A DNA stretch of 64,000 bases, taken from NCBI RefSeq assembly GCF_036507355.1, contig NZ_AP027877.1. One strand, 5' to 3'. The stretch is from Escherichia coli (lineage in GTDB: Bacteria > Pseudomonadota > Gammaproteobacteria > Enterobacterales > Enterobacteriaceae). Under the pieces are notes generated by a model, which had not been told where the DNA came from, made no database searches, and saw only the letters and a list, made by a program, of their open reading frames with translations. Position numbers and translations under genes: made by a program. Shown piece after piece: positions 5,560-60,150 of the stretch (positions are counted from its first letter, which is position 1; each line of letters opens with the position of its first letter).

Positions 5560-5679
5560 GGTCTTCCATCCCGTGAAATGCACATAAGGGAGTTATGCAC
5601 GATTTACGCGCAATCCTCAAGGCGGGAATGGTGAAAGAGGTGAGACTGCGGCGGTAATTATCTTACCGCCGCCAGTGAA

Positions 5680-23398: not shown

Positions 23399-23860
23399 TT
23401 ACTCAGTATGATCAGCGGCATCCTTTGGGGTGCCGTTTTGCTTTATCCGGTCATTAATTTCCTCCAGCAAGTCTTCAGCCTTAACCAATTCTCTGATTGC
23501 CTTTGCTGTCCGCGCTGCCTCTGCTTCAGCTTTGTCGGCTGATTTTTTGGCTAACTGTTCGCGCCTTTCGGCTCTGGCTTGAGCATCCAACTCCCAATCG
23601 CATGAAAGGTGGCGGCCATCTAGATACCTGCTTACGATAACGCCTCTTTCATCCGTATCCTCATGAATGAACCACCAGCCATGCTTCTCGTTCATTAATT
23701 GCTGCAATGGTGAGCGATAGTGTTTACCTGCTATTTGAAGTAATTCGTCTTCACAAACAGGGCCATCAACCAGCGCGCGCCAGATTCGATATGCCTTTGT
23801 GCCTGGCTTAGGGATAGTGTGCAACGGCGCAGTAATCAGGATTTTCTCCCAGTTCTTCAT
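23399..23860 (-). CDS. hypothetical protein (153 aa) between alpA and primase
   Basis: ORF MKNWEKILITAPLHTIPKPGTKAYRIWRALVDG...; ATG overlaps alpA stop (ATGA); charged coiled-coil-like C-terminus. Confidence 0.55.
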   Translation of the reverse strand: MKNWEKILITAPLHTIPKPGTKAYRIWRALVDGPVCEDELLQIAGKHYRSPLQQLMNEKHGWWFIHEDTDERGVIVSRYLDGRHLSCDWELDAQARAERREQLAKKSADKAEAEAARTAKAIRELVKAEDLLEEINDRIKQNGTPKDAADHTE

Positions 23861-24030
23861 TTTTTGGCCTCCAGCCATGAGTTGATTTCTGTTGAAGACC
23901 ATGCTGTAACGCGTTCAGAAAGTTTTATGGGTTTTGGTATCTTCCCGGTTCTTGCCCAGCGCCAAAGAGAAGAAACGCTAATTCCCAGTTGGTTAGCCAG
24001 GTCTTTAGGGCGTAAATATTGCGTTTTCAT
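23857..24030 (-). CDS. alpA: AlpA-family transcriptional regulator
   Basis: 57-aa ORF MKTQYLRPKDLANQLGISVSSLWRWARTGKIPKPIKL... (HTH, AlpA/Xis-like); GAGG SD. Confidence 0.75.
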   Translation of the reverse strand: MKTQYLRPKDLANQLGISVSSLWRWARTGKIPKPIKLSERVTAWSSTEINSWLEAKK

Positions 24031-24112
24031 TTGGTATACCTCGCTCAACGCACTGCCACTCAGTGCTACGACAGCAAAGATAAAGGCATCCAGTGGCAGA
24101 TATAATGCGCAG

Positions 24113-24150
24113 CAAAGTAGGTCTTCACTTTCAAAGTAGGTCTTCACTTT
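24113..24150. promoter_or_regulatory. tandem 19-bp direct repeat upstream of alpA (candidate operator)
   Basis: caaagtaggtcttcacttt repeated twice back-to-back, directly seen; overlaps stop of upstream 283-aa gene. Confidence 0.5.
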
Positions 24151-24995
24151 TGTGAGAATGTTTCAGGGAACCATTCTTGTAGTTGCTGCCTAAGTTTTTG
24201 GCATCTAGAATCATCTTTAATATTGATATCTATACCTTCCTTTGCGGCATACCTTTTTATCGCTTCAATTGTTGCGTCCAGAGTGATGGAGCCGCGTACC
24301 CCCTTACATTCTTCAATCTCATGCTTCAGAACGTATTCAGCTACCTTGCGGCGATTGGCGTGTATCTGAGCGTATCGGATAGTTCGCCCGTCGGTATTGT
24401 CACCAATCGTTTTTAGTGCCTGTTTTGCCTGTGCCGCTTCATAAACTCGCTCAATGTCTTCGGCAGACAGGAACGTTTCATTCATAGAAATAACAAGCGA
24501 GTTATCACCAGTAAAAGTGATGTCCAAACTCCCAACCCCATCAGGACGTTCGTCTATAGCCTCCAGATAATTATTAATGGTGTCCTTGTTTAACCTTATC
24601 GGCTCATTTGGCCTTATAGGAAAAGATGACGGTATGGCCCAGTAACCAGAAGCAATGCCAGTACACCAGAAACAATCTTCCTCAGTGGAAATATGGAAAT
24701 CGGTGCTGACTTTTGAAAGCTCAAGCCCTAACGGGTGAGGTCGATTTTTCGTGGCGCATCCCATATATAGCGCCTCGGCAATTTCTTTCGCATTGTTTTG
24801 GATTAACTCCCGGGAAAGAAAGCCTCCAAATGAACAAGGCTCGCCATTGAGGAGAGCATACAGATGGATCCGGCGCTCTTGATGGTAAGCAACCAACGTA
24901 GTAGGACTTACACCCAACAGCTCGCTTGCCTCAGCTATAGATACTGGCCCATCAGGTCTAACCCTTTTCTTTTTTTCCCAGATTGAAGCGCGCAT
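24144..24995 (-). CDS. hypothetical HTH-domain protein (283 aa)
   Basis: N-terminal helix-turn-helix-like segment SIAEASELLGVSPTTLVAYHQ; remainder unrecognised; sits between int and alpA. Confidence 0.55.
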   Translation of the reverse strand: MRASIWEKKKRVRPDGPVSIAEASELLGVSPTTLVAYHQERRIHLYALLNGEPCSFGGFLSRELIQNNAKEIAEALYMGCATKNRPHPLGLELSKVSTDFHISTEEDCFWCTGIASGYWAIPSSFPIRPNEPIRLNKDTINNYLEAIDERPDGVGSLDITFTGDNSLVISMNETFLSAEDIERVYEAAQAKQALKTIGDNTDGRTIRYAQIHANRRKVAEYVLKHEIEECKGVRGSITLDATIEAIKRYAAKEGIDINIKDDSRCQKLRQQLQEWFPETFSQK

Positions 24996-25049
24996 TTTTC
25001 ACCCTGCCTGTCTTTTATTTGTTCGATTGATGTTCGGGCCAGAAATTTT

Positions 25050-25158
25050 TGTCCCGTCCTGTCCCGTCTTTTGTCCCGGTTTTGTCCCATAACCATTCTT
25101 GTAACCAGCTGTATTTATTGAGTCTTTACAAAACGGGACAAACGGGACAGATGGGACA
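25050..25158. repeat. second iteron cluster (4x TGTCCC, ~45-bp spacer, 3x GGGACA); crr-like site or operator
   Basis: Hexamers at 25050, 25060, 25072, 25083, 25135, 25144, 25153; same hexamer and architecture as 20556..20665, ~4.5 kb away. Confidence 0.55.
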
Positions 25159-25181
25159 AGCAAAAAAACAATATTGAAAAT

Positions 25182-26441
25182 CTATCTGGCTTGCCTCAGT
25201 GGTGTAACGTTGTACTCTTCGCCCCGTTCAAGCGCTTCCATCAGGTTGCCCAGCATGGCCAGCGCTTCCCGCCGTTCGTTTAAATATTGGTGACGGTTGT
25301 AGATGCCTTCGACGCCTTTAATGCGGTGATTAAGGCAACGTTCGGCAACGATAGGATCAACGCCCAGCGCTCCTAAGTGGGTTCGGGCGGTGCGCCTAAG
25401 GTCGTGAATAGTGAAGTTAGGTACGCCCGGCATTGCCTGCTTAACCTTCGCCAGCGCAACGGGCAGGGTGCTTTCCTGAATGTGGGGGATCATGCGGTGC
25501 TGTTGTTTTCGCGCAGGTAGTACCCATTTGCTGTTACAGGAAAGAAGGCGCAATTCTTCAAGCCATTCGATAGCCTGCTTTGGCAGCGGAATATCAATCC
25601 CGTCGCCCGTCTTTGTACGCTCGCCCGGCAAGTACCAAATGCCATTGGCTAAATCGAACTCGCTCCAGCGTGCGGCGCATAGCTCCATCTTTCTCACGCA
25701 AGTGACCAGCAGCAGCTTTATCGTCAATTCGTTCTCGCGGCTAAAGCCTTTCGCCATTCGCATGGCTTCAAAGAGTTGAACCAGTTCCGGCCTGGTTAAC
25801 CATCGTTCTCGAGATGTTTCCTTACCGCCCGCGTCACTTATATCAAAGGCGGCTGCGGGGTTAACCTCAATCATTCCCAGCTTGATCGCATGGTCAAAGA
25901 TGCGGCGTACCCATCGCAGGACGTCATTAGCAACGGATGGCGCACCACGTTTTAAGATGGCCTGAAGCAAGGCATCAATATCTCGGGGTTTGACGTCCTT
26001 AACCTTTTTCTGACCTATGCGAGGATTAATGTCTTTCGCCAGACGACGGCGGAGGATGTCGGGGTGTTTCCATGTACCCAGTACTTTCTTCTTAAAATAG
26101 TCTTCAGCTACTTCGGACACTGTTTTGTCATGCTGGTCGGCTTCCAACTGGGCTTTTAATGCGGCTTTTCGCTCCTGCTTCTCACCGGCAACGTCATACC
26201 CCAGGGAAACACGAGCAGCCAGCTCTCGGGTGATCTCCCGGGCTTTAGCCAGTGAGATAACGCCATACGCGCCAATTGTCATAACACGAGGCTTGCCAGC
26301 GAAGCGGTAGCGGAAACGCCATGATGGGGACGTGTCAGTAGTGCGATAGCGCAAATATAAACCGTTACCGTCCGATTTACCCTCGAACCTTGTTCCGGCC
26401 TTTATCCAGGCCTTGATCTGAATGTCTGTTAGCTTGCCCAT
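25182..26441 (-). CDS. int: tyrosine site-specific integrase (P4-type)
   Basis: 419-aa ORF; N-terminal arm-binding-like domain (GLYLRYR), C-terminal catalytic residues (HDLRRTARTHL ... GIYNRHQY); adjacent to attR. Confidence 0.85.
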   Translation of the reverse strand: MGKLTDIQIKAWIKAGTRFEGKSDGNGLYLRYRTTDTSPSWRFRYRFAGKPRVMTIGAYGVISLAKAREITRELAARVSLGYDVAGEKQERKAALKAQLEADQHDKTVSEVAEDYFKKKVLGTWKHPDILRRRLAKDINPRIGQKKVKDVKPRDIDALLQAILKRGAPSVANDVLRWVRRIFDHAIKLGMIEVNPAAAFDISDAGGKETSRERWLTRPELVQLFEAMRMAKGFSRENELTIKLLLVTCVRKMELCAARWSEFDLANGIWYLPGERTKTGDGIDIPLPKQAIEWLEELRLLSCNSKWVLPARKQQHRMIPHIQESTLPVALAKVKQAMPGVPNFTIHDLRRTARTHLGALGVDPIVAERCLNHRIKGVEGIYNRHQYLNERREALAMLGNLMEALERGEEYNVTPLRQAR

Positions 26442-26553
26442 ATCACCTCATTGGTTGCGTACCCTATCTACTTAATGCCTCTGCCTCATAGGGACACTAT
26501 TGGGTACACGAGAAATATGCGCTTTTATGATGCTAACTGCAACTTTGTGATAT

Positions 26554-26579
26554 GAAAAAAGCCCGTGATTAGCGGGCTT
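26554..26579 (-). terminator. rho-independent terminator supplied by the island for yicC
   Basis: minus-strand agcccg-ctaatca-cgggct hairpin followed by TTTTTT, ~40 nt downstream of the yicC stop, inside the island. Confidence 0.6.
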
Positions 26580-26617
26580 TGTAGGTGGTGTGATTCTGTA
26601 TGATATGGGGTGATACG

Positions 26618-27481
26618 CTACTCAATATTCTGAATCTGCTCGCGCATCTGCTCAATCAACACTTTCAGCTCGATGGCGGAGTTTGTCACTTCGGCGTTGA
26701 TAGATTTCGACGCAAGAGTGTTCGACTCGCGGTTGAACTCCTGCATCATAAAGTCCAGACGACGACCAACGGCTTCTTTTTTCTTCAGAATGTTGTAGGT
26801 CTCTTTGACATGCGCTTCGAGGCGGTCCAGTTCTTCGGCAACGTCAATTCGTTGTGCCAGCAGAACCAACTCCTGCTCCAGACGGTTGTTTTCCAACTGC
26901 ACCTGAGCATCTTCCAGCTTCGCGACCAAGCGTTCACGCTGCCATTGCAGGATTTCCGGCATATGGGAGCGGACTTTGACCACTTCGGCGGTGACGCCTT
27001 CCAGACGCTGCTCAATCAACGCTTTCAGCGCCTGACCTTCGGTTTCGCGAGCGATGATAAAGTCATCCAGGGTGCCATCCAACGCTGCGAGAATTTCAGC
27101 GGCAATCGCGTCGAGATCTTGCTCCTGGGCCGCCATCACGCCCGGCCAGCGTAGAATATCAACCGGGTTGATTTCCCCTTCGTCACTCTGCATTTTTACC
27201 CAGTTCGCGGCAGTTACCAGCTGTTTAGCCAGTTTTTCGTTGAGGATCAGCTCACCTTGCGCGCTAACATCTGGCTCATAGCGCAGAGTACATTCCACTT
27301 TACCGCGCGTCAGGCGAGAACGAATACGCTCACGAACGACAGGTTCAAGGCTACGGAACTGCTCCGGCAGACGAAAGTAAGTTTCCAGATAACGCTGGTT
27401 TACCGAGCGCATTTCCCAGGTTGCGCTCCCCCATTCACCCTTGATTTCACGCCGGGCGTAGGCGGTCATACTGCGGATCAT
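26618..27481 (-). CDS. yicC: YicC-family stress-induced protein
   Basis: 287-aa ORF MIRSMTAYARREIKGEWGSATWEMRSVNQRYLE... ending ...EQIQNIE. Confidence 0.9.
   Translation of the reverse strand: MIRSMTAYARREIKGEWGSATWEMRSVNQRYLETYFRLPEQFRSLEPVVRERIRSRLTRGKVECTLRYEPDVSAQGELILNEKLAKQLVTAANWVKMQSDEGEINPVDILRWPGVMAAQEQDLDAIAAEILAALDGTLDDFIIARETEGQALKALIEQRLEGVTAEVVKVRSHMPEILQWQRERLVAKLEDAQVQLENNRLEQELVLLAQRIDVAEELDRLEAHVKETYNILKKKEAVGRRLDFMMQEFNRESNTLASKSINAEVTNSAIELKVLIEQMREQIQNIE
26622..26638. other. attR core (tcaatAttctgaatctg) within the last codons of yicC
   Basis: 17-bp direct repeat of 18487..18503 with one mismatch. Confidence 0.7.
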
Positions 27482-35618: not shown

Positions 35619-35948
35619 AGTAAATAGCTGACTTATGGATGTGCTGGGGATTCTATGTATTTAGCTGTGGCTTTACCATTACTTTTCCCGTTTTTGACTT
35701 AAATAGCAATTTACCCGCCAATTCTTGCTGAACATCTATACTTTTTTTGTATTTTTATGCGATTCATTGATTTCTGCTGTACGTGCAGGAAGGAATCGCA
35801 GAGCAACAGTGAAAGAATATGGTTGCTAATGATTATATTTGATTGATTTCTTTATTGAAAATCAACAATGTGCTTAAAAATCATTCGGGTCGGATTGCCG
35901 CGAAAGAAGTGATACACTAGCGCGTCAATATCAGTGCGGTATCAGTAT

Positions 35949-35981
35949 TCAGGTAGCTGTTGAGCCTGGGGCGGTAGCGTG
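35949..35981 (+). promoter_or_regulatory. JUMPstart element with ops (GGCGGTAGCGTG), RfaH-dependent antitermination site
   Basis: ops 12-mer directly seen at 35970..35981 in the waaQ leader. Confidence 0.8.
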
Positions 35982-36030: not shown

Positions 36031-37089
36031 GTGGATAAGCCATTTCGAAGAATTTTGCTCATTAAGATGCGTTTTCATGGGGATATGTTATTAACTACTC
36101 CCGTCATTAGTTCGCTGAAAAAAAATTACCCTGACGCAAAAATCGATGTGCTGCTTTATCAGGACACCATCCCGATCCTGTCTGAAAATCCAGAGATTAA
36201 CGCGCTCTACGGCATAAAAAATAAAAAAGCAAAAGCCTCAGAAAAAATTACCAACTTTTTTCATCTCATCAAGGTATTACGTGCCAATAAGTATGACCTT
36301 ATCGTCAATCTTACCGATCAATGGATGGTTGCTATACTGGTTCGCTTATTAAATGCCCGTGTGAAAATTTCCCAGGATTATCATCATCGGCAGTCTGCTT
36401 TTTGGCGTAAAAGTTTCACCCATTTGGTGCCGTTGCAGGGTGGAAATGTGGTGGAAAGTAACTTATCCGTGCTGACACCATTGGGACTTGATTCGTTGGT
36501 GAAGCAGACAACCATGAGTTACCCGCCTGCAAGCTGGAAACGTATGCGTCGCGAACTTGATCACGCTGGTGTTGGTCAAAATTATGTGGTTATCCAACCT
36601 ACGGCGCGGCAAATCTTCAAATGCTGGGACAACGCCAAGTTTTCCGCTGTGATTGATGCCTTACATGCTCGTGGTTATGAAGTCGTTCTGACGTCCGGCC
36701 CAGATAAAGACGATCTGGCCTGCGTCAATGAAATTGCGCAGGGATGCCAGACGCCACCAGTAACGGCGCTGGCTGGAAAGGTGACCTTCCCGGAACTTGG
36801 TGCGTTAATCGATCATGCGCAGCTGTTTATTGGCGTTGATTCCGCACCGGCGCATATTGCCGCTGCAGTTAATACGCCGCTGATATCGCTGTTTGGTGCG
36901 ACAGACCATATTTTCTGGCGTCCCTGGTCAAATAACATGATTCAATTCTGGGCGGGAGATTACCGGGAAATGCCAACGCGCGATCAGCGTGACCGAAATG
37001 AGATGTATCTTTCGGTTATTCCGGCGGCAGATGTCATTGCTGCTGTCGATAAATTACTGCCCTCCTCCACGACAGGTACGTCGTTATGA
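36031..37089 (+). CDS. waaQ: LPS heptosyltransferase III
   Basis: GT9-family ORF (...ILLIKMRFHGDMLLTTPVISSLKKNYPDAKIDVLLYQDT...); exact start uncertain (GTG 36031 or ATG 36067). Confidence 0.85.
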   Translation: MDKPFRRILLIKMRFHGDMLLTTPVISSLKKNYPDAKIDVLLYQDTIPILSENPEINALYGIKNKKAKASEKITNFFHLIKVLRANKYDLIVNLTDQWMVAILVRLLNARVKISQDYHHRQSAFWRKSFTHLVPLQGGNVVESNLSVLTPLGLDSLVKQTTMSYPPASWKRMRRELDHAGVGQNYVVIQPTARQIFKCWDNAKFSAVIDALHARGYEVVLTSGPDKDDLACVNEIAQGCQTPPVTALAGKVTFPELGALIDHAQLFIGVDSAPAHIAAAVNTPLISLFGATDHIFWRPWSNNMIQFWAGDYREMPTRDQRDRNEMYLSVIPAADVIAAVDKLLPSSTTGTSL

Positions 37090-38210
37090 TCGTTGCTTTT
37101 TGTTTATATAAATATTTTCCCTTTGGCGGTTTGCAGCGCGATTTTATGCGTATTGCTCAGACAGTCGCCGCCCGAGGTCATCATGTTCGGGTTTATACCC
37201 AGTCGTGGGAAGGCGAATGCCCTGATGTATTTGAACTGATCAAAGTGCCGGTTAAATCGCATACCAATCACGGGCGCAATGCGGAGTATTTTGCCTGGGT
37301 GCAAAAACATTTACGCGAACATCCCGTCGATAAAGTCGTTGGATTCAACAAAATGCCGGGGCTGGACGTTTATTATGCCGCTGATGTTTGTTATGCCGAG
37401 AAAGTAGCGCAGGAAAAAGGCTTTTTCTATCGCCTGACGTCACGTTATCGCCATTATGCCGCCTTTGAGCGGGCAACCTTCGAACAGGGCAAGCCGACAC
37501 AGCTGCTGATGCTGACAGATAAGCAAATCGCCGATTTCCAGAAACATTATCAGACTGAAGCGGAGCGTTTTCATATTCTGCCACCGGGGATTTATCCTGA
37601 TCGTAAATATAGCCAGCAGCCAGCCAATAGCCGTGAAATCTTCCGTAAGAAGAATGGAATAACCGAACAACAATATTTATTGTTGCAGGTCGGTTCAGAC
37701 TTCACGCGTAAAGGTGTCGATCGTTCCATTGAAGCACTTGCTTCGTTACCGGATTCGCTGCGCCACAACACATTGCTATATGTTGTTGGGCAGGATAAAC
37801 CGCGAAAATTTGAGGCGCTGGCAGAAAAACGCGGCGTGCGCAGTAATGTTCACTTCTTCTCGGGGCGCAACGATGTCTCGGAATTAATGGCGGCGGCGGA
37901 TTTATTACTGCATCCTGCCTACCAGGAAGCGGCGGGAATTGTGCTGCTGGAAGCGATTACTGCAGGATTACCGGTACTAACAACAGCCGTTTGTGGCTAT
38001 GCGCATTATATTGTCGAGGCCAATTGCGGCGAGGCTATTGTTGAGCCATTCCGCCAGGAAACATTGAATGAGATTTTACGCAAAGCGTTAACGCAATCTT
38101 CATTGCGCCAGGCCTGGGCGGAAAATGCGCGACATTATGCTGATACACAAGATTTATACAGTCTGCCAGAGAAAGCGGCGGATATCATAACGGGTGGTCT
38201 GGATGGTTGA
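37086..38210 (+). CDS. waaG: LPS core glucosyltransferase I (GT4)
   Basis: 374-aa [23 protein letters not shown]... Confidence 0.9.
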
Positions 38211-39000
38211 ACTTAAAGAGCCGTTTGCCACGTTATGGCGCGGTAAAGATCCTTTTGAGGAAGTTAAAACCTTGCAGGGTGAGGTATTTCGTGAACTGGA
38301 AACTCGCCGTACTCTGCGCTTTGAAATGGCGGGCAAAAGCTATTTTCTCAAATGGCATCGCGGCACGACCCTGAAAGAGATAATCAAAAATTTACTCTCA
38401 TTGCGGATGCCAGTATTAGGCGCAGACCGCGAATGGAATGCGATTCATCGACTGCGGGATGTCGGCGTTGATACTATGTATGGGGTGGCATTTGGCGAAA
38501 AAGGCATGAATCCGCTGACCAGAACTTCATTTATTATTACCGAAGATCTGACACCAACCATAAGTCTGGAAGATTACTGTGCTGACTGGGCGACTAACCC
38601 TTCAGATGTTCGCGTAAAGCGTATGCTTATTAAGCGTGTCGCGACGATGGTGCGCAATATGCATGCTGCGGGCATTAACCACCGTGACTGTTATATCTGT
38701 CATTTCCTGCTGCACTTGCCTTTTTCCGGTAAGGAAGAGGAGTTAAAAATTTCGGTAATTGACCTGCACCGGGCGCAGCTTCGCACGCGCGTTCCACGTC
38801 GTTGGCGCGATAAAGATCTTATTGGGCTTTATTTTTCATCGATGAATATCGGCCTGACTCAGCGGGATATCTGGCGGTTTATGAAAGTGTATTTTGCCGC
38901 CCCGCTTAAAGACATTCTCAAGCAGGAACAAGGACTGCTGTCGCAAGCAGAAGCAAAAGCCACAAAAATCAGGGAAAGAACGATTCGAAAATCGTTGTAA
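38203..39000 (+). CDS. waaP: LPS core heptose(I) kinase
   Basis: ATG at 38203 ([22 protein letters not shown]...). Confidence 0.9.
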
Positions 39001-39042
39001 CCCGTAACTTATTTTTGCCAAAATTTTGGATACAGAATAAAT

Positions 39043-40050
39043 ATGTCTCAACTCAATGATAGTGACATCATCCTTTTTGAGTATAATTTTCATTATCAAA
39101 ATATAAGATCTAAAAATACTCTTGATATAGCATTTGGTATTGACAGAAATTTTCTTTTTGGATGTGGTGTAGCCATCGCATCTATTCTATTAAACAATAG
39201 AGAAATCTCTTGTGAATTTCATGTTTTCACAGATTATATCAGTGATAAAGACAAGTTATATTTTTCCGATTTAGCAAAACAATATAATTCAAGAATTAAT
39301 ATTTATGTTATCAATTGTGATAAGCTGAAGTCATTACCAAGCACGAAAAACTGGACTTACGCTACATATTTTCGATTTATAATTGCAGATTATTTCTATA
39401 ATAAACATGAAAAAATACTATACCTTGATGCAGATATTGCTTGCAAGGGTAGTATTAAAGAACTCTTAGATTATCAATTCTCTACTAATGAAATTGCCGC
39501 AGTTGTAGCTGAAAGAGATGTTGAATGGTGGCAGAATCGAGCCTCGGTATTAACTACACCACAATTAGCTTCTGGATATTTCAATGCTGGTTTTTTACTG
39601 ATAAATATTGATGAGTGGAATCTTAATAACATTTCGTCAAAAGCTATTGAAATGTTGCGTGACCCAGATTGGGTAAGTAAAATCACCCACCTTGATCAAG
39701 ATGTACTGAATGTATTATTGAATGGTAAAGTGAAGTTTATTTCGGGGAAATATAATACCCGATATAGTATTAACTATGAATTAAAAGACAAAGTTGATAA
39801 TCCAGTCAATGATGACACCGTGTTTATACACTATGTGGGACCTACAAAACCCTGGCATGAATGGGCTGATTATCCGGTGTCACGTAGTTTTTTGATCGCC
39901 AAAGCAGCCTCTCCGTGGTGTAAAGAAGATTTACTTAAACCTGTAAATAGCAATCAGTACCGGTATTGTGCAAAACATAAATTTAAACAAAAGCATTATA
40001 TGGCAGGCATTTTTAATTATTTAAAGTATTATAAAGAAAAATGCTTCTAA
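39043..40050 (+). CDS. waaI: LPS outer-core alpha-1,3 glycosyltransferase (GT8), WaaI/WaaO-like
   Basis: 335-aa GT8 ORF with DxD (YLDADI); AT-rich; symbol assigned from R3-type gene order GT8-kinase-GT8-GT4. Confidence 0.65.
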   Translation: MSQLNDSDIILFEYNFHYQNIRSKNTLDIAFGIDRNFLFGCGVAIASILLNNREISCEFHVFTDYISDKDKLYFSDLAKQYNSRINIYVINCDKLKSLPSTKNWTYATYFRFIIADYFYNKHEKILYLDADIACKGSIKELLDYQFSTNEIAAVVAERDVEWWQNRASVLTTPQLASGYFNAGFLLINIDEWNLNNISSKAIEMLRDPDWVSKITHLDQDVLNVLLNGKVKFISGKYNTRYSINYELKDKVDNPVNDDTVFIHYVGPTKPWHEWADYPVSRSFLIAKAASPWCKEDLLKPVNSNQYRYCAKHKFKQKHYMAGIFNYLKYYKEKCF

Positions 40051-40075
40051 AGATTTAAGGTTAAAATAATTCATT

Positions 40076-40783
40076 ATGATATATAATAAAACGATAAATG
40101 GGTTAAACGTTTTCATAAAAGATAATGATCCCTTTTATGAGCAAGTTCTGAATGACTTTTTAACTTGCAGGGTTAAAACATTAAAAGTTTTTCGTTCTAT
40201 TGATGATACTAAAGTCATTCTTATTGACACTGCTCGTGGACCTCTTGTACTTAAAGTTTATGCGCCAAAGCATAAAATGATCGAACGTTTCTTAAAATCT
40301 TGCGTAAAAAAAGATTATTATGAAAATTTAATTTATCAAACCGATCGGGTACGTGGTGAAGGCATTCAATCAATTAATGACTATTTTTTGCTTGCTGAAC
40401 GTAAAACATTAAATTTCGCGCATTATTATATTATGCTCATTGAGTATATTGAAGGTATCGGGTTAAATGAGTATTTGGAAATTTCTGAAGAACTGAAGGA
40501 TCAATTATCAGAATCGATAAAAGAGTTGCATCAGCATGGAATGGTGTCTGGCGATCCTCATAAAGGAAATTTTATAGTATCCGAAAAAGGTTTAAGACTA
40601 ATTGACCTTTCAGGTAAAAAAACAACCGCAGTTTTAAAAGCAAAAGATCGCATTGATCTTGAACGGCACTATAATATAAAAAATGAATTGAAAGACTTTG
40701 GCTATACATATCTTATATTCAAAAAGAAAATTAAAAAAGCAATCAGGGATGTAAAAGTCAAACTAGGCTTGAAGAGCAAATAA
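40076..40783 (+). CDS. waaY: LPS core heptose(II) kinase
   Basis: 235-aa kinase-like ORF MIYNKTINGLNVFIKDNDPFYEQ... Confidence 0.75.
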   Translation: MIYNKTINGLNVFIKDNDPFYEQVLNDFLTCRVKTLKVFRSIDDTKVILIDTARGPLVLKVYAPKHKMIERFLKSCVKKDYYENLIYQTDRVRGEGIQSINDYFLLAERKTLNFAHYYIMLIEYIEGIGLNEYLEISEELKDQLSESIKELHQHGMVSGDPHKGNFIVSEKGLRLIDLSGKKTTAVLKAKDRIDLERHYNIKNELKDFGYTYLIFKKKIKKAIRDVKVKLGLKSK

Positions 40784-40807
40784 TGATTATGATGAAGGGT
40801 AATTAAA

Positions 40808-41821
40808 TTGGATTTTAAACATCTTACTCAATTTAAAGATATAATTGAACTGGACAAGCGCCCCGTTAAACTTGATGAACGGGAAACGTTTAATGTCTCA
40901 TGGGGTATTGATGAGAACTACCAGGTTGGGACTGCGATTTCAATTGCTTCAATTCTTGAAAATAATAAACAAAACAAATTTACCTTTCACATAATCGCTG
41001 ATTACTTAGACAAAGAGTATATTGAATTATTATCACAATTAGCAACGAAGTATCAAACAGTAATTAAATTATATCATATTGATTCTGAGCCATTGAAGGC
41101 GTTACCTCAATCAAATATCTGGCCAGTATCTATTTATTATCGTTTGCTTTCATTTGATTATTTTTCTGCGCGATTGGATTCATTATTATATCTTGATGCT
41201 GATATCGTTTGCAAGGGTTCATTGAACGAGTTAATAGCATTAGAGTTTAAAGATGAATATGGGGCTGTGGTAATTGATGTAGATACTATGCAAAGTAAAA
41301 GCGCTGAGCGTTTATGTAATGAGGATTTTAACGGTAGCTATTTTAACTCTGGTGTAATGTATATTAATTTACGGGAATGGTTAAAACAAAGACTAACGGA
41401 GAAATTCTTTGAACTATTATCAGATGAGTCAATTATCAAAAAATTAAAATATCCGGATCAAGATATTTTAAACTTAATGTTTCTACATCATGCTAAAATA
41501 TTACCGAGAAAATATAACTGTATTTATACTATAAAGTCAGAATTTGAAGAAAAAAATAGTGAATATTACACCCGGTTTATTAATGATGAAACTGTCTTCA
41601 TACATTATACTGGTGTAACAAAGCCATGGCATGATTGGGCGAACTACGCATCTGCAGATTATTTTCGTAATATTTATAATATATCACCATGGAGAAATAT
41701 ACCTTATAAAAAAGCTGTTAAAAAACATGAGTACAAAGAAAAATATAAACACTTGCTTTACCAGAAAAAATTTCTCGATGGTTTTTTTACAGCAATTAAA
41801 TATAATTTTATGAAAGGTTAA
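40808..41821 (+). CDS. waaJ: LPS outer-core alpha-1,2 glycosyltransferase (GT8), WaaJ-like
   Basis: 337-aa GT8 ORF with DxD (YLDADIVCKG); non-ATG (TTG) start in ORF track. Confidence 0.65.
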   Translation: MDFKHLTQFKDIIELDKRPVKLDERETFNVSWGIDENYQVGTAISIASILENNKQNKFTFHIIADYLDKEYIELLSQLATKYQTVIKLYHIDSEPLKALPQSNIWPVSIYYRLLSFDYFSARLDSLLYLDADIVCKGSLNELIALEFKDEYGAVVIDVDTMQSKSAERLCNEDFNGSYFNSGVMYINLREWLKQRLTEKFFELLSDESIIKKLKYPDQDILNLMFLHHAKILPRKYNCIYTIKSEFEEKNSEYYTRFINDETVFIHYTGVTKPWHDWANYASADYFRNIYNISPWRNIPYKKAVKKHEYKEKYKHLLYQKKFLDGFFTAIKYNFMKG

Positions 41822-41829
41822 CATTCGAG

Positions 41830-42972
41830 ATGGTTGATAAAATAATATTTACAGTTACTCCTATTTTTTCAATTCCTCCTCGCGGAGCGGCCGCTGTTGA
41901 AACGTGGATGTATCAGGTTGCTCAGCGTACCAATTTCCCAAATCGTATTGTTTGTATCAAGAATCCAGGATACTCAAATTACACCTTTGTTAATGATAAT
42001 TGTAGTATTCATAGGGTTGGATTCAGTCGCATATATAAGCGGTTATTTCAAAAATGGACAAGACTTGATCCTCTTCCATATTCACAGAGAATATTGAATA
42101 TTGCACATGATTTTTCTATAACGAAAGAAAGTGTTATTGTAGTTCATAATAGCATGAAGCTATACACTCAAATTCGTAAGCGAGCTCCTCAGGCAAGAGT
42201 GGTTATACATATGCATAATGCATTTGAACCAAAATTGCTTGAGCAAAATGTTAAAATGATAGTGCCTAGTTTATACTTGAAAAAGTATTACCAATCTTAT
42301 TTAGCAAATGCAGATATTGAGATTGTACCAAATGGAATTGATTTAGAAACCTATCAATCTACTTTTCAGCCGATCACTAGAAGCGAACTTAATATCTCCC
42401 CTGAAGAGAAAATTATTTTTTATGCTGGGCGTATCGTCCCTGACAAAGGCATATTGCTGTTGATGCAATCATTCGAAAAATTGGCCGCTGCTCACAAAAA
42501 TTTAAAATTAGTTGTGATTGGTGATTATACAGAAATGAGTAAAAGTGACAAAGGTGCATATCAACGCAATGTCAGGGACATTGCAAAACGTTTGAAGGAT
42601 CGTTGCATTATGTTAGGAAGCATACCGCCTGAAAAGATGCATTGTTATTACCCACTGGCAGATTTAGTCGTCATTCCTTCCCAGTTCCAGGAACCATTTT
42701 GCATGGTGGCAATTGAAGCTATGGGTGCTGGTAAGCCTGTTTTAGTGAGTACGCGTGGGGGGATGACGGAATTTGTCAAAGAAAATACTACGGGATTCCA
42801 TTTAAAAGAACCTATGACTGCAGACTCCATAAGCAGCGATATTTTAAAAACGTTAGCGAATCCTGAATTAACAGCAGTTGCAAAGCAAGGTCAGGATTTT
42901 GTGTTTGAACACTACAGTTGGGATGGCGTAACTCAAAGATTCGAAGAGGTTATTCATAATTGGTTTGAATAA
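41830..42972 (+). CDS. waaD: LPS outer-core glycosyltransferase (GT4), WaaD-like
   Basis: 380-aa GT4 ORF (E-x7-E region FQEPFCMVAIEAMGAGKPVL); last gene of central operon as in R3 cores. Confidence 0.55.
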   Translation: MVDKIIFTVTPIFSIPPRGAAAVETWMYQVAQRTNFPNRIVCIKNPGYSNYTFVNDNCSIHRVGFSRIYKRLFQKWTRLDPLPYSQRILNIAHDFSITKESVIVVHNSMKLYTQIRKRAPQARVVIHMHNAFEPKLLEQNVKMIVPSLYLKKYYQSYLANADIEIVPNGIDLETYQSTFQPITRSELNISPEEKIIFYAGRIVPDKGILLLMQSFEKLAAAHKNLKLVVIGDYTEMSKSDKGAYQRNVRDIAKRLKDRCIMLGSIPPEKMHCYYPLADLVVIPSQFQEPFCMVAIEAMGAGKPVLVSTRGGMTEFVKENTTGFHLKEPMTADSISSDILKTLANPELTAVAKQGQDFVFEHYSWDGVTQRFEEVIHNWFE

Positions 42973-43006
42973 ATAAAAAGGCTGCATTATGCAGCCTTTT
43001 TATTTT

Positions 43007-44215
43007 TTACTTGTTTTTCATCGCTAATAATAAGCCGGCGTAAACGCCTAATAAATTTGGTTCAATTTGTTCTACGTTTCCACGGATAACAAAATAACCT
43101 ATAAAAGATAGTAAGATTATATAATATGCATTATATGGTGAGCGGTATTTATTCTGGACGCCATTTTTTATACACTCTTTCAATATTGCACAGTATAGCA
43201 TCATAAGACTTACCAGCCCTAATAAACCAGTGCCAAACCAGATGAATAGCGCGAAATTATGTGGCCCTATTGATTGTCTAAAGGTCCATTCTGGATAATC
43301 AACGACACGTTTATTATAGACATCTTTATATGCAACGTTACCGTAACCATAACCAATAACAGGATTTTCTAATATTAGATCGAGTGCGCTGCCTTGAGTA
43401 CCATTTGCATAGCGATAAGAACTATTAGTTTGTTGAAGTTTATACGTTAGATTTGCGGTCATCTCCTTATGTGTGAAAATAACCGACAATGCAATGATGG
43501 AAACCATTACTCCTACTAATAGTAACTTCCATTGTTTAAACATCAGAATCCATATTAATCCAATGACTAACACGGAAAGCCAGGCCCCTCTGGATAAAGT
43601 TCCTAATATCAGAAAAATAAAAATAACGCTTAGAACCACAAAAGAAATGCGGTATTTTGCTGATTTGATAAGCCAGAGATTTAACAATGCAGGGAATAAA
43701 AAGACCATCGAGTCAGAAATGCTACGGTGTCTATAATCTGCGAATGGCATTATCCCTTGTTGATAGTCCTTATAATAGGCAATCAATTCAGAAAAACAGC
43801 GTAAGCCCAACGCACTAATAAATGAGAAGAAAACGATTTTTTCGACATCTTCTCTTTTCTCGTCTCTCAATATGACCGGTATTGCTATTGTGCATAGTAA
43901 AGTATTCTCAATAATAGCTTTGAAAATTTCCTTCATGCTAGCACCTGCATCAGGGGATTGAAGAAGTGACAGCAATGCAGCAATAGTTAATATGGCAACA
44001 CTACCAAAAAGAAATGTTTTAAATAGTGAGAGATAGTGTTTTGGCCGTTTGCAGAGATAGACGATTGTCGTTATTGTCATAAGAATAACAATAAGATGTT
44101 TATACCTTGTAATCCCACCCAAAAAATAGGTGGTAATGAATAAGAATACGAGAGCTCTGTTCCAGTACGCTATCCAGTTTTTTTTCTCGAGAGAGAAAAG
44201 TAATGTTGAGGTCAT
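43007..44215 (-). CDS. waaL: O-antigen ligase
   Basis: 402-aa polytopic membrane ORF, AT-rich, convergent with central waa operon. Confidence 0.8.
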   Translation of the reverse strand: MTSTLLFSLEKKNWIAYWNRALVFLFITTYFLGGITRYKHLIVILMTITTIVYLCKRPKHYLSLFKTFLFGSVAILTIAALLSLLQSPDAGASMKEIFKAIIENTLLCTIAIPVILRDEKREDVEKIVFFSFISALGLRCFSELIAYYKDYQQGIMPFADYRHRSISDSMVFLFPALLNLWLIKSAKYRISFVVLSVIFIFLILGTLSRGAWLSVLVIGLIWILMFKQWKLLLVGVMVSIIALSVIFTHKEMTANLTYKLQQTNSSYRYANGTQGSALDLILENPVIGYGYGNVAYKDVYNKRVVDYPEWTFRQSIGPHNFALFIWFGTGLLGLVSLMMLYCAILKECIKNGVQNKYRSPYNAYYIILLSFIGYFVIRGNVEQIEPNLLGVYAGLLLAMKNK

Positions 44216-45204
44216 CTTATCTCCGATGTCAACTTATTGGTTATTATTTCAAGATTTAAATTTTGAAAAACGGTTTGAGCTGGCAAATCTACAAGAGACA
44301 TACTTGTAGAACGACACTCTACTTGATTCTTTCCATACCCGCCAATTAATCCCGGATCGGTAGGTCCATAAAACGTGATATTGGGTCTATCCAGTGCCGC
44401 CGTTAAATGGCTTAACCCTGTATCCACTGACACTACAAATTTAGCCCCGGCCAGCACGCGGGCAACGCCTTCCAGACTCATCTTAGGCAATACTTCAACA
44501 TAAGCAAATCCTTCCGCCAGTCGTTTCGCCCGTTCTTCCTCATGCGGCGCGCCCCACGGAAGTTTAATCCGTATTCCTGAATCAGCCAGTAAACCAATCA
44601 ATTCTCGCCAGTGTTCTTCCGGCCAGTGTTTATCATCACGGGTCGTCGCATGAAGAAATACGGCATATTCGCCAGCATCTGTAGGCAGGTTCGTCAGAAA
44701 ATGCTGTGCGATAGCATAATCGCCCTGGGTTTGCGGTTTGCTATAGCCCAAACTTTTGGCAAACAGTTCGCGGGTGCGTTCTACGGCGTGCTGCTGTTTT
44801 GCAATATGATGCTTACAATTGTAAAACAGGCTGGCTAAAGGTTCGCGAGCGGTTTGCCAGTCCATGCCATGCTTTACGCCATGCGCCAGACGCGTCACCA
44901 GCGCCGCGCTTTTTACCAGCCCCTGAGCGTCGATAACTGCGTCATAGTTCTCTGCTTGTAGCGCTTCACGAAACGCTTTGCGTTCCGCTTTTATGGGGGC
45001 CGAGAACCAGGCTTTACGCCAGCGACGTATTGCCACAGGAATAACTCGCTCAACGGCAGCGTGCCAGGAAGGAATCTGTGCGAACCCTTCTTCCACCACC
45101 CAGTCAAACTTAATCCCTGGGATTGCCTGCTGGGCATCAGTGAGTGCGGGCAACGTATGGAGAACATCGCCCATCGACGATGTTTTAACGATCAAAACCA
45201 GCAT
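44212..45204 (-). CDS. waaC: LPS heptosyltransferase I
   Basis: GT9 ORF MLVLIVKTSSMGDVLHTLPALTDAQQAIPGIKF... Confidence 0.9.
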   Translation of the reverse strand: MLVLIVKTSSMGDVLHTLPALTDAQQAIPGIKFDWVVEEGFAQIPSWHAAVERVIPVAIRRWRKAWFSAPIKAERKAFREALQAENYDAVIDAQGLVKSAALVTRLAHGVKHGMDWQTAREPLASLFYNCKHHIAKQQHAVERTRELFAKSLGYSKPQTQGDYAIAQHFLTNLPTDAGEYAVFLHATTRDDKHWPEEHWRELIGLLADSGIRIKLPWGAPHEEERAKRLAEGFAYVEVLPKMSLEGVARVLAGAKFVVSVDTGLSHLTAALDRPNITFYGPTDPGLIGGYGKNQVECRSTSMSLVDLPAQTVFQNLNLEIITNKLTSEIR

Positions 45205-45207
45205 CCG

Positions 45208-46254
45208 TCAGGCTTCCTCTTGTAACAATAGCGCGTTGAGTTCTTCCAGTACGCGCTGGGGAGTAATGTCGATTAAGCTCTGGTGATAACCCTCCGCAGC
45301 GTCACCTTTACGCACTTTGTGATAGCCGGTAATCAAACGGATCACGCGCGCTTTATGGGATAGCGGCGGTGTGAAGTCCGGGCTACTCGGACCATACAGG
45401 GCAACCAGCGGACGATTGAGCGCCGCCGCAACATGCATCAGGCCAGAATCGTTAGTGACAATGGCTTTACAGGCTGCAATCAGGATAACCGCTTGATCAA
45501 GCTGTGTTTCCCCCGCCAGGTTCCGACACCATGCCTGCTGCTCGGTATTCAAAGCGGCAAGAATCTCATTGCCCGCTTCATGATCTTTCGCCGAGCCAAA
45601 CAGAACCACCTGATAACCTTCATCAATCAGCTGCTTTGCCAGCTCCGCATAGTGGTAGTGTGGCCAGCGTTTTGCCGGACCAAACTCCGCACCCGGGCAA
45701 AAACCAATCATCGGACGTTCTGATGAAAGCGAAAATTGATTACAGGTATATGATTTTTCACCTTCGCTCACCTGCAATTGCGGCCATAACAACGGTTTTG
45801 GTAGATCTTGTGCGGTACGCATCACGCCTTTGTCATAGGCCAGCGCGACATAGCGTTCCACCATTAGCGGCCAGGCTTCTTTATCGAGCACGCGTACATC
45901 GTTGAGTAAACCGTAGCGCATCTCGCCGCGCCAGCCGGTGCGATGAGGAATACCCGCGAAGAAAGGCACTAATGCAGATTTGAAGGAGTTGGGTAAGACG
46001 TAGGCGCGGTCGTAGCGCTTTTCACGCAGGCTATGACCCAGTTTGCGGCGTTCGCCGATTTCCAGCGCTCCGTGACCGAGAGGCATAGGGATAGCTTCGT
46101 TAACTTCCGGCATCCGCGATAATAATGGACGGCACCATGCCGGTGCCATCACATCGATTATCGCCTGGGGATAGCGCGCCTGGAGCGTGCGATAGAGACT
46201 TTGCGACATCATCATGTCGCCAACCCAAGACGGGCCGATCACCAGTATTTTCAT
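45208..46254 (-). CDS. waaF: LPS heptosyltransferase II
   Basis: 348-aa GT9 ORF MKILVIGPSWVGDMMMSQSLYRTL... Confidence 0.9.
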   Translation of the reverse strand: MKILVIGPSWVGDMMMSQSLYRTLQARYPQAIIDVMAPAWCRPLLSRMPEVNEAIPMPLGHGALEIGERRKLGHSLREKRYDRAYVLPNSFKSALVPFFAGIPHRTGWRGEMRYGLLNDVRVLDKEAWPLMVERYVALAYDKGVMRTAQDLPKPLLWPQLQVSEGEKSYTCNQFSLSSERPMIGFCPGAEFGPAKRWPHYHYAELAKQLIDEGYQVVLFGSAKDHEAGNEILAALNTEQQAWCRNLAGETQLDQAVILIAACKAIVTNDSGLMHVAAALNRPLVALYGPSSPDFTPPLSHKARVIRLITGYHKVRKGDAAEGYHQSLIDITPQRVLEELNALLLQEEA

Positions 46255-46263
46255 GCAGAGCTC

Positions 46264-47196
46264 TTATGCGTCGCGATTCAGCCAGGCCATGTATTCCGTT
46301 ACACCTTCAGCAACGGTTTTGAACGGTTTGTCGTAACCCGCCGCGCGCAGATTTGTCAGATCTGCCTGAGTGAACGCCTGATAGCGGCCTTTCAGTTTAT
46401 CCGGGAACGGAATGTATTCGATCTGGCCTTTCTTGTGATAAGCCAGCGTAGCATCAGCTACAGCCTGGAAGGATTCCGCACGACCAGTACCGAGATTGAA
46501 GATGCCGGAAACGCCATTTTCCAGGAACCACAGATTCACATCAGCCACGTCGCCCACATAGACGAAGTCGCGTTTGAAGTTCTCGCTACCTTCAAACAGC
46601 TTCGGTGATTCACCGTTGTTAAGCTGGGTGTTGAGATGGAAAGCGACGCTCGCCATGCTGCCTTTATGGCCTTCACGCGGTCCATAAACGTTGAAATAAC
46701 GGAAGCCAACAATCTGCGAGTTCGCTTCAGGCAGGATTTGACGAACATATTCATCAAACAGGAATTTTGAGTAACCGTAGACGTTCAACGGTTTTTCGTA
46801 CTCGCGGGATTCAATAAAGTCGGAGGTGCGTCCGCCGTAGGTGGCCGCGGAAGATGCATACAGGAACGGGATTTCGCGCTCCAGACAGTAGTGCAGCAGC
46901 TCTTTGGAGTATTGATAGTTGTTATCCATCATATACTTGCCATCCCACTCGGTGGTGGAAGAGCATGCGCCTTCGTGGAAAATCGCTTCGACATCGCCGA
47001 ACTCTTCGCCAGCCATAATCTGGATCAGGAAGTCTTCCTTATCCATATAGTCTGCGATATTCAGATCCACCAGGTTCACAAACTTGGTGCCGTCTTTCAG
47101 GTTGTCCACCACCAGAATATCGGTGATGCCTTTATCATTCAGGGCCTTAACGATGTTGCTGCCGATAAAGCCCGCGCCGCCGGTAACGATGATCAT
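46264..47196 (-). CDS. hldD: ADP-L-glycero-D-manno-heptose 6-epimerase
   Basis: 310-aa [26 protein letters not shown]... (Rossmann GxxGxxG). Confidence 0.95.
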
Positions 47197-47499
47197 AACT
47201 GTAACCTTCGAATTATGGAGTCAGAGACAATCTCAGACACGAATGTCTGTAATCATACCATCACATCCGAATCCCTTCAGCCCTTTACATAGAGATGCAA
47301 GGATGCTAATTGCAACAAACTAGTTTGGGTTTTAGCTAGTCCTTCATGGCGGATGTTGGTTTTGCACGTGAATAGTGCTTTAGTATCAATATTCCGATGT
47401 ATGGTAAATAACGGAAGCATTTGAATGGATAATATACAGTATACATTCTGTTAATATTTATGATATAATTCTTTTTTTATATTAATGGTCTTATTAGTA

Positions 47500-48357
47500 A
47501 TGAAATCATCCACCACAATTATCACTGCATATTTTGACATTGGTAGAGGGGATTGGACTGCTAATAAAGGGTTCCGTGAAAAACTAGCTCGTTCAGTTGA
47601 TGTTTATTTTAGTTACTTTGAGCGTCTGGCCGTACTTGAAAATGAGATGATTATTTTCACTTCTCCCGATTTGAAACCAAGGGTTGAAGCGATTCGCAAC
47701 GGAAAACCAACAACGGTTATCGCTATCGATATAAAAAAGAAATTTAGACATATCAGAAGTCGTATCGAAAAAATTCAAAAAGATGAGTCGTTTACAAATA
47801 GACTTGAGCCTCGACAATTAAAAAACCCAGAGTACTGGTCACCAGAGTATGTTTTGGTATGTAACCTTAAGGCCTATTTTGTAAATAAAGCTATCAACAT
47901 GGGCTTAGTGAAAACGCCTCTTGTTGCGTGGATAGATTTTGGCTATTGCCGTAAGCCAAATGTGACTCGAGGATTGAAAATTTGGGATTTCCCATTTGAT
48001 GAAAATAAGATGCATCTTTTCACTATAAAAAAAGGGCTTACTGTTACATCTCAACAACAGGCTTTTGATTTCATGATTGGCAATCATGTATATATTATTG
48101 GGGGCGCAATTGTTGGTTCACAGCATAAATGGAAAGAATTCTATAAATTAGTTCTGGAAAGTCAAAAAATAACACTAAACAATAACATTGTGGACGATGA
48201 CCAGGGCATTTTTGTCATGTGCTATTACAAACGTTCCGATCTCTTCAACCTAAACTATCTGGGGAGAGGAAAATGGTTCGATTTGTTTCGCTGCTTCAGG
48301 AGTAACACTTTAGGGGCAAAAATGCAGGCGCTGAGAATTTTCCTTTCAAGAAAATAG
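47500..48357 (+). CDS. htrL: HtrL/YibB-family protein
   Basis: ATG at 47500 (MKSSTTIITAYFDIGRGDW...), AT-rich; conserved position next to hldD. Confidence 0.7.
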   Translation: MKSSTTIITAYFDIGRGDWTANKGFREKLARSVDVYFSYFERLAVLENEMIIFTSPDLKPRVEAIRNGKPTTVIAIDIKKKFRHIRSRIEKIQKDESFTNRLEPRQLKNPEYWSPEYVLVCNLKAYFVNKAINMGLVKTPLVAWIDFGYCRKPNVTRGLKIWDFPFDENKMHLFTIKKGLTVTSQQQAFDFMIGNHVYIIGGAIVGSQHKWKEFYKLVLESQKITLNNNIVDDDQGIFVMCYYKRSDLFNLNYLGRGKWFDLFRCFRSNTLGAKMQALRIFLSRK

Positions 48358-48631
48358 GTTTCCCGCCATTAGTGGGTAGCGTTTTGATGCCAACTGAGAT
48401 AGGAAAAATGATGTTTTGGCATCATTTTTTCTTTTTATATCAATGCAGTAAAATCACTCATCATTATGCTCAGCCAAAACTGTACAGTTTTTCTACTATC
48501 TGTAGGTGTTGAGAGACATCAAGATACACGTTATTTATCCTGAATTTTGCAGAAGTGTTAACGCGTCATCTCGTCGCGACCTATAAGTTTGGGTAATATG
48601 TGCTGGAATTTGCCCTGTCTGGAGAATCGCA

Positions 48632-59974: not shown

Positions 59975-60150
59975 CCCTTAGTGCGGGGGCAGGATAGCAG
60001 AAAATTGGTGAGCAGTGCGGCCTTTTCCCCTCACCCCGTAGGGGCGAGGGAGAAAAAAAGAGTGCGGTGTCGTTTCAGAGTGAGGGAGTACATACAGCGC
60101 CGAACGGTCCCCTCTCCCTGAGGGAGAGGGTTAGGGTGAGGGGGCGCAAA
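59975..60150. repeat. cluster of GC-rich palindromic intergenic repeats
   Basis: Several hairpins (ccccc-ttagtg-cggggg; cccctcacc...ggggcgaggg; ccctctccc-tgag-gggagaggg; ttagggtgaggggg) between trmL and lldD. Confidence 0.5.

Follow-up and report, generated by a model that had tools for sequence, protein, structure and literature searches.

Sequence-based assignment of an Escherichia coli lipopolysaccharide core locus to the R3 type

We analysed the waa (lipopolysaccharide core) locus in a stretch of 64,000 nucleotides of the E. coli chromosome (contig NZ_AP027877.1 of assembly GCF_036507355.1), referred to here as the window and numbered from its first letter. A first-pass annotation had read the genes at 39043–44215 as an R3-type core cassette. 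Our comparison with typed core loci agrees: the segment appears to be an intact type-specific outer-core cassette of the E. coli R3 waa locus that hardly differs from the O157:H7 one, a reading to which we assign a probability of about 97%. R3-type clusters are already well known, and nothing about the one found here is new.

Genes and features of the locus

The coordinates of the open reading frames (ORFs) and their Pfam matches give the order that had been proposed from the letters alone. After waaQ, waaG and waaP come a gene of glycosyltransferase family 8 (GT8), the WaaY kinase gene, a second GT8 gene and a gene of glycosyltransferase family 4 (GT4), followed by a convergent waaL. The features of the locus are listed below.

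35943–35981, plus strand: JUMPstart element in the waaQ leader (Rfam RF01707, 55.2 bits; gathering score, 35)
35970–35977, plus strand: ops motif GGCGGTAG, inside the JUMPstart of the waaQ leader
36031–37089, plus strand: waaQ, heptosyltransferase III, part of the conserved section of the operon (NCBIfam NF007742, 713.8 bits)
37086–38210, plus strand: waaG, GT4 glucosyltransferase I (annotated by RefSeq in genome L001, where the gene is 100% identical)
38203–39000, plus strand: waaP, heptose I kinase, with its stop codon marking the left cassette edge (NCBIfam NF011703, 479 bits)
39001–44323, no strand: the R3-specific AT-rich variable cassette, delimited by homology breakpoints against the K-12, R1, R2 and R4 loci and by composition
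39043–40050, plus strand: waaI, GT8, predicted UDP-galactose:(glucosyl)lipopolysaccharide alpha-1,3-galactosyltransferase (Pfam Glyco_transf_8; NCBIfam NF011718, 617 bits, above cut-off)
40076–40783, plus strand: waaY, heptose II kinase (Pfam WaaY, 312 bits; NCBIfam NF007684)
40808–41821, plus strand: waaJ, GT8, with a TTG start (Pfam Glyco_transf_8; RefSeq product name)
41830–42972, plus strand: waaD, GT4, the R3-diagnostic gene (Pfam Glycos_transf_1)
42971–43005, no strand: perfect 16-bp hairpin between the waaD and waaL stops (terminator scan; RNA fold)
43007–44215, minus strand: waaL, R3-type O-antigen ligase, convergent (NCBIfam NF012031, 690 bits; Pfam Wzy_C)
44212–45204, minus strand: waaC, heptosyltransferase I, with its last ~110 nt in the type-specific block (NCBIfam NF008204)
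45208–46254, minus strand: waaF, heptosyltransferase II (NCBIfam NF008162, 751 bits)
46264–47196, minus strand: hldD/rfaD, ADP-heptose 6-epimerase, at the head of the right-hand operon (RefSeq annotation of L001)

All Pfam scores lie above the gathering cut-offs (PF01501, 248 and 215 bits; PF00534, 120; PF04932, 76; PF06176, 312), and NCBIfam models identify waaQ, waaP, waaY, waaL, waaC and waaF across the cassette and its flanks. Each cassette ORF is full length and aligns end to end with its family profile and with the corresponding O157:H7 protein; neither a frameshift nor a premature stop interrupts any of them. In the RefSeq annotation of a near-identical genome (L001) the gene models are identical to the ORFs here, including the start of the third cassette gene, waaJ, which has the same position in O157:H7 (L003) as well. 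The right-hand operon runs on the minus strand as hldD-waaF-waaC-waaL, with waaL last.

The conserved genes on either side show how far the type-specific sequence extends. HldD is 100% identical in amino acid sequence to the proteins of both K-12 and O157:H7, and WaaG is 99.2% identical to that of O157:H7. The waaQGP genes fall into two lineages: the copies in the window are about 99% identical in amino acid sequence to those of R1, R3 and R4 loci (WaaQ, 99.4% to O157:H7, R1 and R4), whereas against K-12 and R2 loci the identities are 73% for WaaQ, 88–90% for WaaG and 84% for WaaP. Because of this split, the left edge of the type-specific sequence depends on the type compared. Homology with the R1 and R4 loci reaches as far as 39000, where the waaP stop codon finishes, and homology with the K-12 and R2 loci only to about 38896. 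On the right, homology with all core types resumes at 44321–44324, within waaC and some 110 nt from its 3′ end.

Core type of the cassette

We typed the locus by in-silico polymerase chain reaction with the LPSTyper primer set, published in 2025 (PMC13293308, Table 2). The R3 pair matches exactly at 40892–40914 (plus strand) and 41893–41912 (minus strand), giving a 1,021-bp waaJ-waaD amplicon equal to the published size. The R1, R2, R4 and K-12 primers found no match in the window with up to three mismatches allowed. Control loci were taken from genomes sharing only the conserved flanks and typed with the same primers. These controls were typed correctly: MG1655 as K-12, L007 as K-12 type, L006 as R1, L004 and L005 as R4, L008 as R2, and O157:H7 (L003) as R3. 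A further R3 primer pair, reportedly that of Amor et al. 2000, also matches exactly, the two primers facing each other 1,785 bp apart, and counts here as supporting evidence only.

As a point of nomenclature, the LPSTyper publication (PMC13293308) mixes up two uses of the name waaD, that for the R3 glycosyltransferase gene and the old synonym of rfaD/hldD. Its R3-F primer sits in the GT4 gene (41893–41912) and not in hldD (46264–47196).

The core of O157:H7 is reported to be R3 on the basis of mass spectrometry (10.1101/536201), and waaD has been described as confined to R3 strains (PMC3899070). The locus in the window is collinear with that of O157:H7 over 11.4 kb, in one ungapped piece with 98.6–98.7% nucleotide identity. 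Over their full lengths, the cassette proteins are 99.1% (WaaI), 97.0% (WaaY), 97.6% (WaaJ), 98.9% (WaaD) and 98.3% (WaaL) identical to those of O157:H7. Comparison of the GT8, GT4 and WaaL proteins with typed loci had been set beforehand as the test of the assignment, and its outcome was near-identity to R3 (97.0–99.1%). At 99.3–99.4% identity, the genomes nearest to the locus come from environmental and animal isolates that are not O157.

The R3 prototype strain provided independent landmarks. Mutants of waaI, waaJ, waaD and waaG were made in this strain in a 2023 study that prints its primers (PMC9927288), and the homology arms of these deletion primers map to ORF boundaries in the window with 94–100% identity. 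The waaI primers abut the ATG (39043–39045) and the stop codon of the ORF at 39043–40050; the waaJ arms flank the ORF at 40808–41821, and the waaD arms bracket that at 41830–42972. Since the prototype primers fall at these boundaries, the gene order is waaI-waaY-waaJ-waaD. With the R3-only amplicon and the identity to O157:H7, this mapping bears out the earlier claim of an R3 arrangement rather than that of K-12.

Best matches to R1, R4 or K-12 proteins were not seen. The GT8 proteins and WaaY are only 40–59% identical to their counterparts in the primer-typed K-12, R1, R4 and R2 loci (WaaY alone, 52–59%). Outside R3, R2 is the only E. coli core type with relatives of WaaD and WaaL (WaaK, 57%; R2 WaaL, 52%), and the K-12, R1 and R4 loci hold no orthologue of either. 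We also searched in the reverse direction, with the type-specific proteins of other cores against the whole window by tblastn (MG1655 proteins for K-12). WaaS, WaaB, WaaZ, WaaX and the WaaL proteins of K-12, R1 and R4 found no match anywhere in the window. K-12 WaaU matched only a 44-amino-acid stretch of waaC, WaaV matched only waaH (32%), and the R1 and R4 GT8s reached 36–54% identity.

Each of the other types is thus missing its own genes here. For K-12, waaS, waaB, waaZ, waaU and the K-12 waaL are without orthologue in the window, and the K-12 primers are absent. For R1 and R4, whose markers are waaT and waaW with waaV (R1) or waaX (R4), there is no match to WaaX or to their WaaL, and the window waaL is convergent. 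For R2, WaaZ and WaaB (queried with the K-12 protein) have no match, and the R2 primers are absent.

We found no evidence that contradicts an R3 assignment; what weighs against it amounts to caveats. One of these is a name: RefSeq and NCBIfam (subfamily NF012028) call WaaD a lipopolysaccharide N-acetylglucosaminyltransferase, whereas the experimental literature makes it a glucosyltransferase. The name was probably transferred from WaaK, the R2 protein to which WaaD is 57% identical.

WaaD-like sequence is also found on a plasmid. With the waaD and waaL genes together (41830–44215) as query, 10 plasmid records matched. The E. coli plasmid NZ_JCANKX010000003.1 (L009, 96.5 kb) carries at 5001–5642 a truncated WaaD-like pseudogene, 63% identical in amino acid sequence over 215 residues. 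It is cut by the insertion sequence (IS) IS1 and lies among glycosyltransferase, acyltransferase and epimerase genes.

Composition, origin and integrity of the cassette

The cassette stands out by its composition, as the first-pass annotation had noted in calling it far more AT-rich than waaA, waaC, waaF and hldD. Positions 39001–44215 have 33.3% G+C against 51.3% in the rest of the window, and this is essentially the 5.2-kb span of lowest G+C in the 64 kb; the lowest non-overlapping span has 46.0%. G+C at third codon positions is 25–34% in the five cassette genes and 46–62% in waaA, waaC, waaF and hldD. The waaQGP genes are intermediate (47–48% G+C). G+C drops sharply from about 48–50% to 33% at 39001 and climbs back at about 44300. 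However, the cassettes of K-12, R1, R2, R3 (O157:H7) and R4 all have 33–35% G+C, in line with the literature (PMC8715443). Because all five are equally AT-rich, composition marks the outer-core region and does not discriminate R3.

We determined the prevalence of the locus with an 11.4-kb query across it against 5,426 complete E. coli genomes. A partial match was present in 5,424 of them, and 1,363 (25.1%) matched over at least 80% of the query length, the best with 99.4% identity. This agrees with the published R3 prevalence of 25.79%.

Low G+C at the core locus has been read in the literature as horizontal transfer (PMC8715443), and the abrupt change of G+C at both edges of the cassette could likewise be taken to mean that this strain or lineage acquired a young genomic island. 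We consider a recent acquisition very unlikely. No integrase, IS, transfer RNA gene or repeat was found flanking the cassette, and no mobility gene lies in or adjoining it. At this site, all five alternative cassettes share this composition. Divergence from O157:H7 is alike inside and outside (97.9–99.3% nucleotide identity for cassette genes, 97.3–99.6% for flanking genes), and a quarter of E. coli genomes have the locus. A recent island was rejected on these grounds: absence of mobility genes, shared composition, and similar divergence within and beyond the cassette.

Instead, the low G+C is in keeping with a foreign origin that is ancient and common to the five alternative cassettes. The data point to five alternative alleles of long standing, this cassette among them, forming an old polymorphism in which homologous recombination through the conserved flanks swaps one allele for another. 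The horizontal origin proposed in the first-pass annotation is the standard reading in the literature, but it is neither specific to R3 nor recent.

A second alternative is that the locus is R3 by sequence yet functionally defective, as in a rough strain, through a subtle substitution or the TTG start of waaJ. Such a start is indeed present, and each protein differs from its O157:H7 counterpart by 3–8 amino acids. Against this, the full-length ORFs with their end-to-end alignments contain no frameshift or premature stop, and the same waaJ start position is annotated in RefSeq for both O157:H7 and strain TB06051. A defect of this kind seems very unlikely.

That the locus could be a hybrid or undescribed core type resembling R3 in gene order only, which might be entertained because R2/K-12 and R1/R4 hybrid waa loci are reported in E. 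coli (PMC13293308) and because WaaY (97.0%) and WaaJ (97.6%) are the proteins least conserved with respect to O157:H7, has a negligible chance of being correct and was rejected at the sequence level: the locus is collinear with O157:H7 without a gap across 11.4 kb, each cassette gene has 97.9–99.3% nucleotide identity, genes of other types are absent, and the complete locus is common to 1,363 genomes.

Expression, core assembly and relation to other loci

Antitermination in the long waaQ operon depends on RfaH, for which JUMPstart/ops is the signal. In the window, waaQ-G-P-I-Y-J-D would be read from the JUMPstart/ops leader, with RfaH recruited there so that transcription proceeds through the long AT-rich operon. 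At the other end, the hairpin at 42971–43005 occupies the 34 nt that separate the stop codons of waaD and the convergent waaL, and has A/T tracts on both sides. Its predicted fold has an energy of −20.9 kcal/mol (z = −5.8). This hairpin is likely a bidirectional intrinsic terminator common to both operons, and as such would end the transcription of each. A scan for promoter-like sites over the locus returned 35 sites against 35.3 expected in shuffled sequence, and no promoter was assigned.

The R3 core oligosaccharide has a backbone of glucose (Glc) and galactose (Gal), Glc-Glc-Gal-Glc, with a side branch of N-acetylglucosamine (GlcNAc) on Gal. If the enzymes of the window act as the literature describes, WaaQ would add heptose III, WaaP would phosphorylate heptose I and WaaY heptose II, and WaaG would add the first outer-core glucose. 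WaaI would then add an alpha-1,3-galactose, WaaJ an alpha-1,2-glucose and WaaD the terminal alpha-1,2-glucose, and WaaL would ligate O-antigen onto the completed core.

We drew these functions from secondary papers; the primary paper on WaaJ, WaaD and WabB is reportedly one by Kaniuk et al. of 2004 in the Journal of Biological Chemistry. WaaI is described as adding the HexII galactose and WaaJ the HexIII glucose (PMC9927288, PMC3899070, 10.64898/2026.07.23.740414). According to the same three sources, WaaD adds a further glucose onto HexIII, and loss of waaD blocks O-antigen ligation. In R3, the GlcNAc or glucosamine on heptose III is added by WabB, which is encoded on a plasmid, and the outer-core galactose is said to receive its GlcNAc from “an unknown protein” (10.1101/536201). 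A full R3 core also requires these two enzymes, which are encoded elsewhere.

R3 is the type carried by O157:H7 and by about a quarter of E. coli, and is associated with enterohaemorrhagic strains and with those positive for the locus of enterocyte effacement. Core type sets which O-antigens can be ligated. Recognition of the cell by phages, by predators and by antibodies, cross-reactive anti-core ones among them, likewise depends on it. Assignment of the window to R3 is therefore useful strain metadata, although it adds no new biology.

Beside the right-hand operon lies one further gene, a neighbour associated with the locus whose membership in it is unproven.

47485–48357, plus strand: yibB/htrL (Pfam HtrL_YibB; NCBIfam NF008462)

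It is carried on a presence/absence segment of 1,283 bp and 36% G+C (47245–48527), which is replaced by about 61 bp in many genomes. We counted yibB over the same 5,426 genomes, taking the R3 count from a query that needs R3 waaL plus part of the yibB segment. All 1,363 R3 genomes cover at least 80% of this query, and at most six of them could have only a yibB remnant. The gene is present in 451 of the 1,032 genomes with a K-12-type waaL (44%) and, by a derived count, in about 138 of about 3,031 other genomes (~5%); in total, 1,952 of the 5,426 genomes carry it.

By sequence, YibB matches only the uncharacterised HtrL_YibB family in Pfam and NCBIfam, and a sequence search of the PDB gave no meaningful relative. 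NCBI names many of its homologues “WlaTC/HtrL family glycosyltransferase”. A literature search for htrL, yibB and WlaTC found no functional study, and yibB is not mentioned in a preprint on random-barcode transposon sequencing in O157:H7 (10.64898/2026.07.23.740414). An AlphaFold model built from the single sequence was unusable (predicted local distance difference test, pLDDT, 30). A model from an alignment of 40 homologues reached a pLDDT of 89.9 and a predicted template-modelling score of 0.89. The structure predicted in this way appears to have a GT-A fold, with retaining GT6/GT8 transferases of the alpha-1,3-HexNAc/Hex kind as the closest structures.

The near-perfect co-occurrence of yibB with R3 could matter, because the enzyme for the R3 GlcNAc side branch is reported as unassigned. 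Since YibB is a predicted retaining GT-A enzyme, adjoins the waa locus and is nearly fixed in R3, it is a reasonable candidate for that transferase. We nonetheless think it improbable that YibB adds the GlcNAc to the outer-core galactose, or is some other enzyme functionally coupled to the R3 core. Several points weigh against such a role: no more than 3 kb separates yibB from the cassette, and linkage alone could give the association; K-12, whose core is not known to have the GlcNAc side-branch residue, has a copy 98.5% identical; and homologues occur in many other genera, Salmonella included. The co-occurrence is more simply explained by linkage to the cassette.

Two differences from the closest genome (TB06051) were seen elsewhere in the window. 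About 8.1 kb of extra DNA lies beside the 3′ end of yicC (~18504–26618), and its junctions overlap by 20 bp. Its genes include those for a tyrosine integrase (25182–26441), a DUF927 protein (20759–22480), a toprim protein (22462–23388) and a regulator with a weak resemblance to MerR; several further ORFs (18648–20762) have no Pfam match. This insert looks like a small integrative, satellite-like element, and it is rare: at least 80% of its length is found in 8 of the 5,426 genomes. Between trmL and lldD, positions 60038–60114 do not align to the closest genome, the interval being 77 nt here and about 45 nt there.

Set beside the known core loci, the window shares features with every type. R1 and R4 have near-identical waaQGP (99%), and their cassettes start at the same nucleotide after the waaP stop, but they carry three GT8 genes together with waaV (of family GT2) in R1 or waaX (of family GT25) in R4. 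In both types waaL points the same way as the waaQ operon and shows no sequence relationship to the waaL of the window; the convergent waaL thus discriminates against R1 and R4. K-12 has a convergent waaL, the conserved waaQGP, waaC, waaF and hldD, GT8 paralogues, waaY and an AT-rich cassette (33.2% G+C), but differs in having waaS, waaB, waaZ and waaU and an unrelated WaaL.

R2 has the same ending as the window, a GT4 gene and then a convergent waaL, and the Salmonella enterica core locus is grouped with R2 for this ending. R2 additionally has a GT8 gene at the waaS position, waaB and waaZ, and its waaQGP is of the K-12/R2 lineage (73–88% amino acid identity). The literature describes WaaK of R2 as a GlcNAc transferase but reports WaaD of R3 as a glucosyltransferase (PMC3899070). 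With O157:H7 the differences are allelic only, at 9–19 nucleotide substitutions per cassette gene. In O157:H7 and in the R3 prototype (F653 lineage), the gene set, order, orientation and R3 amplicon are all as they are here.

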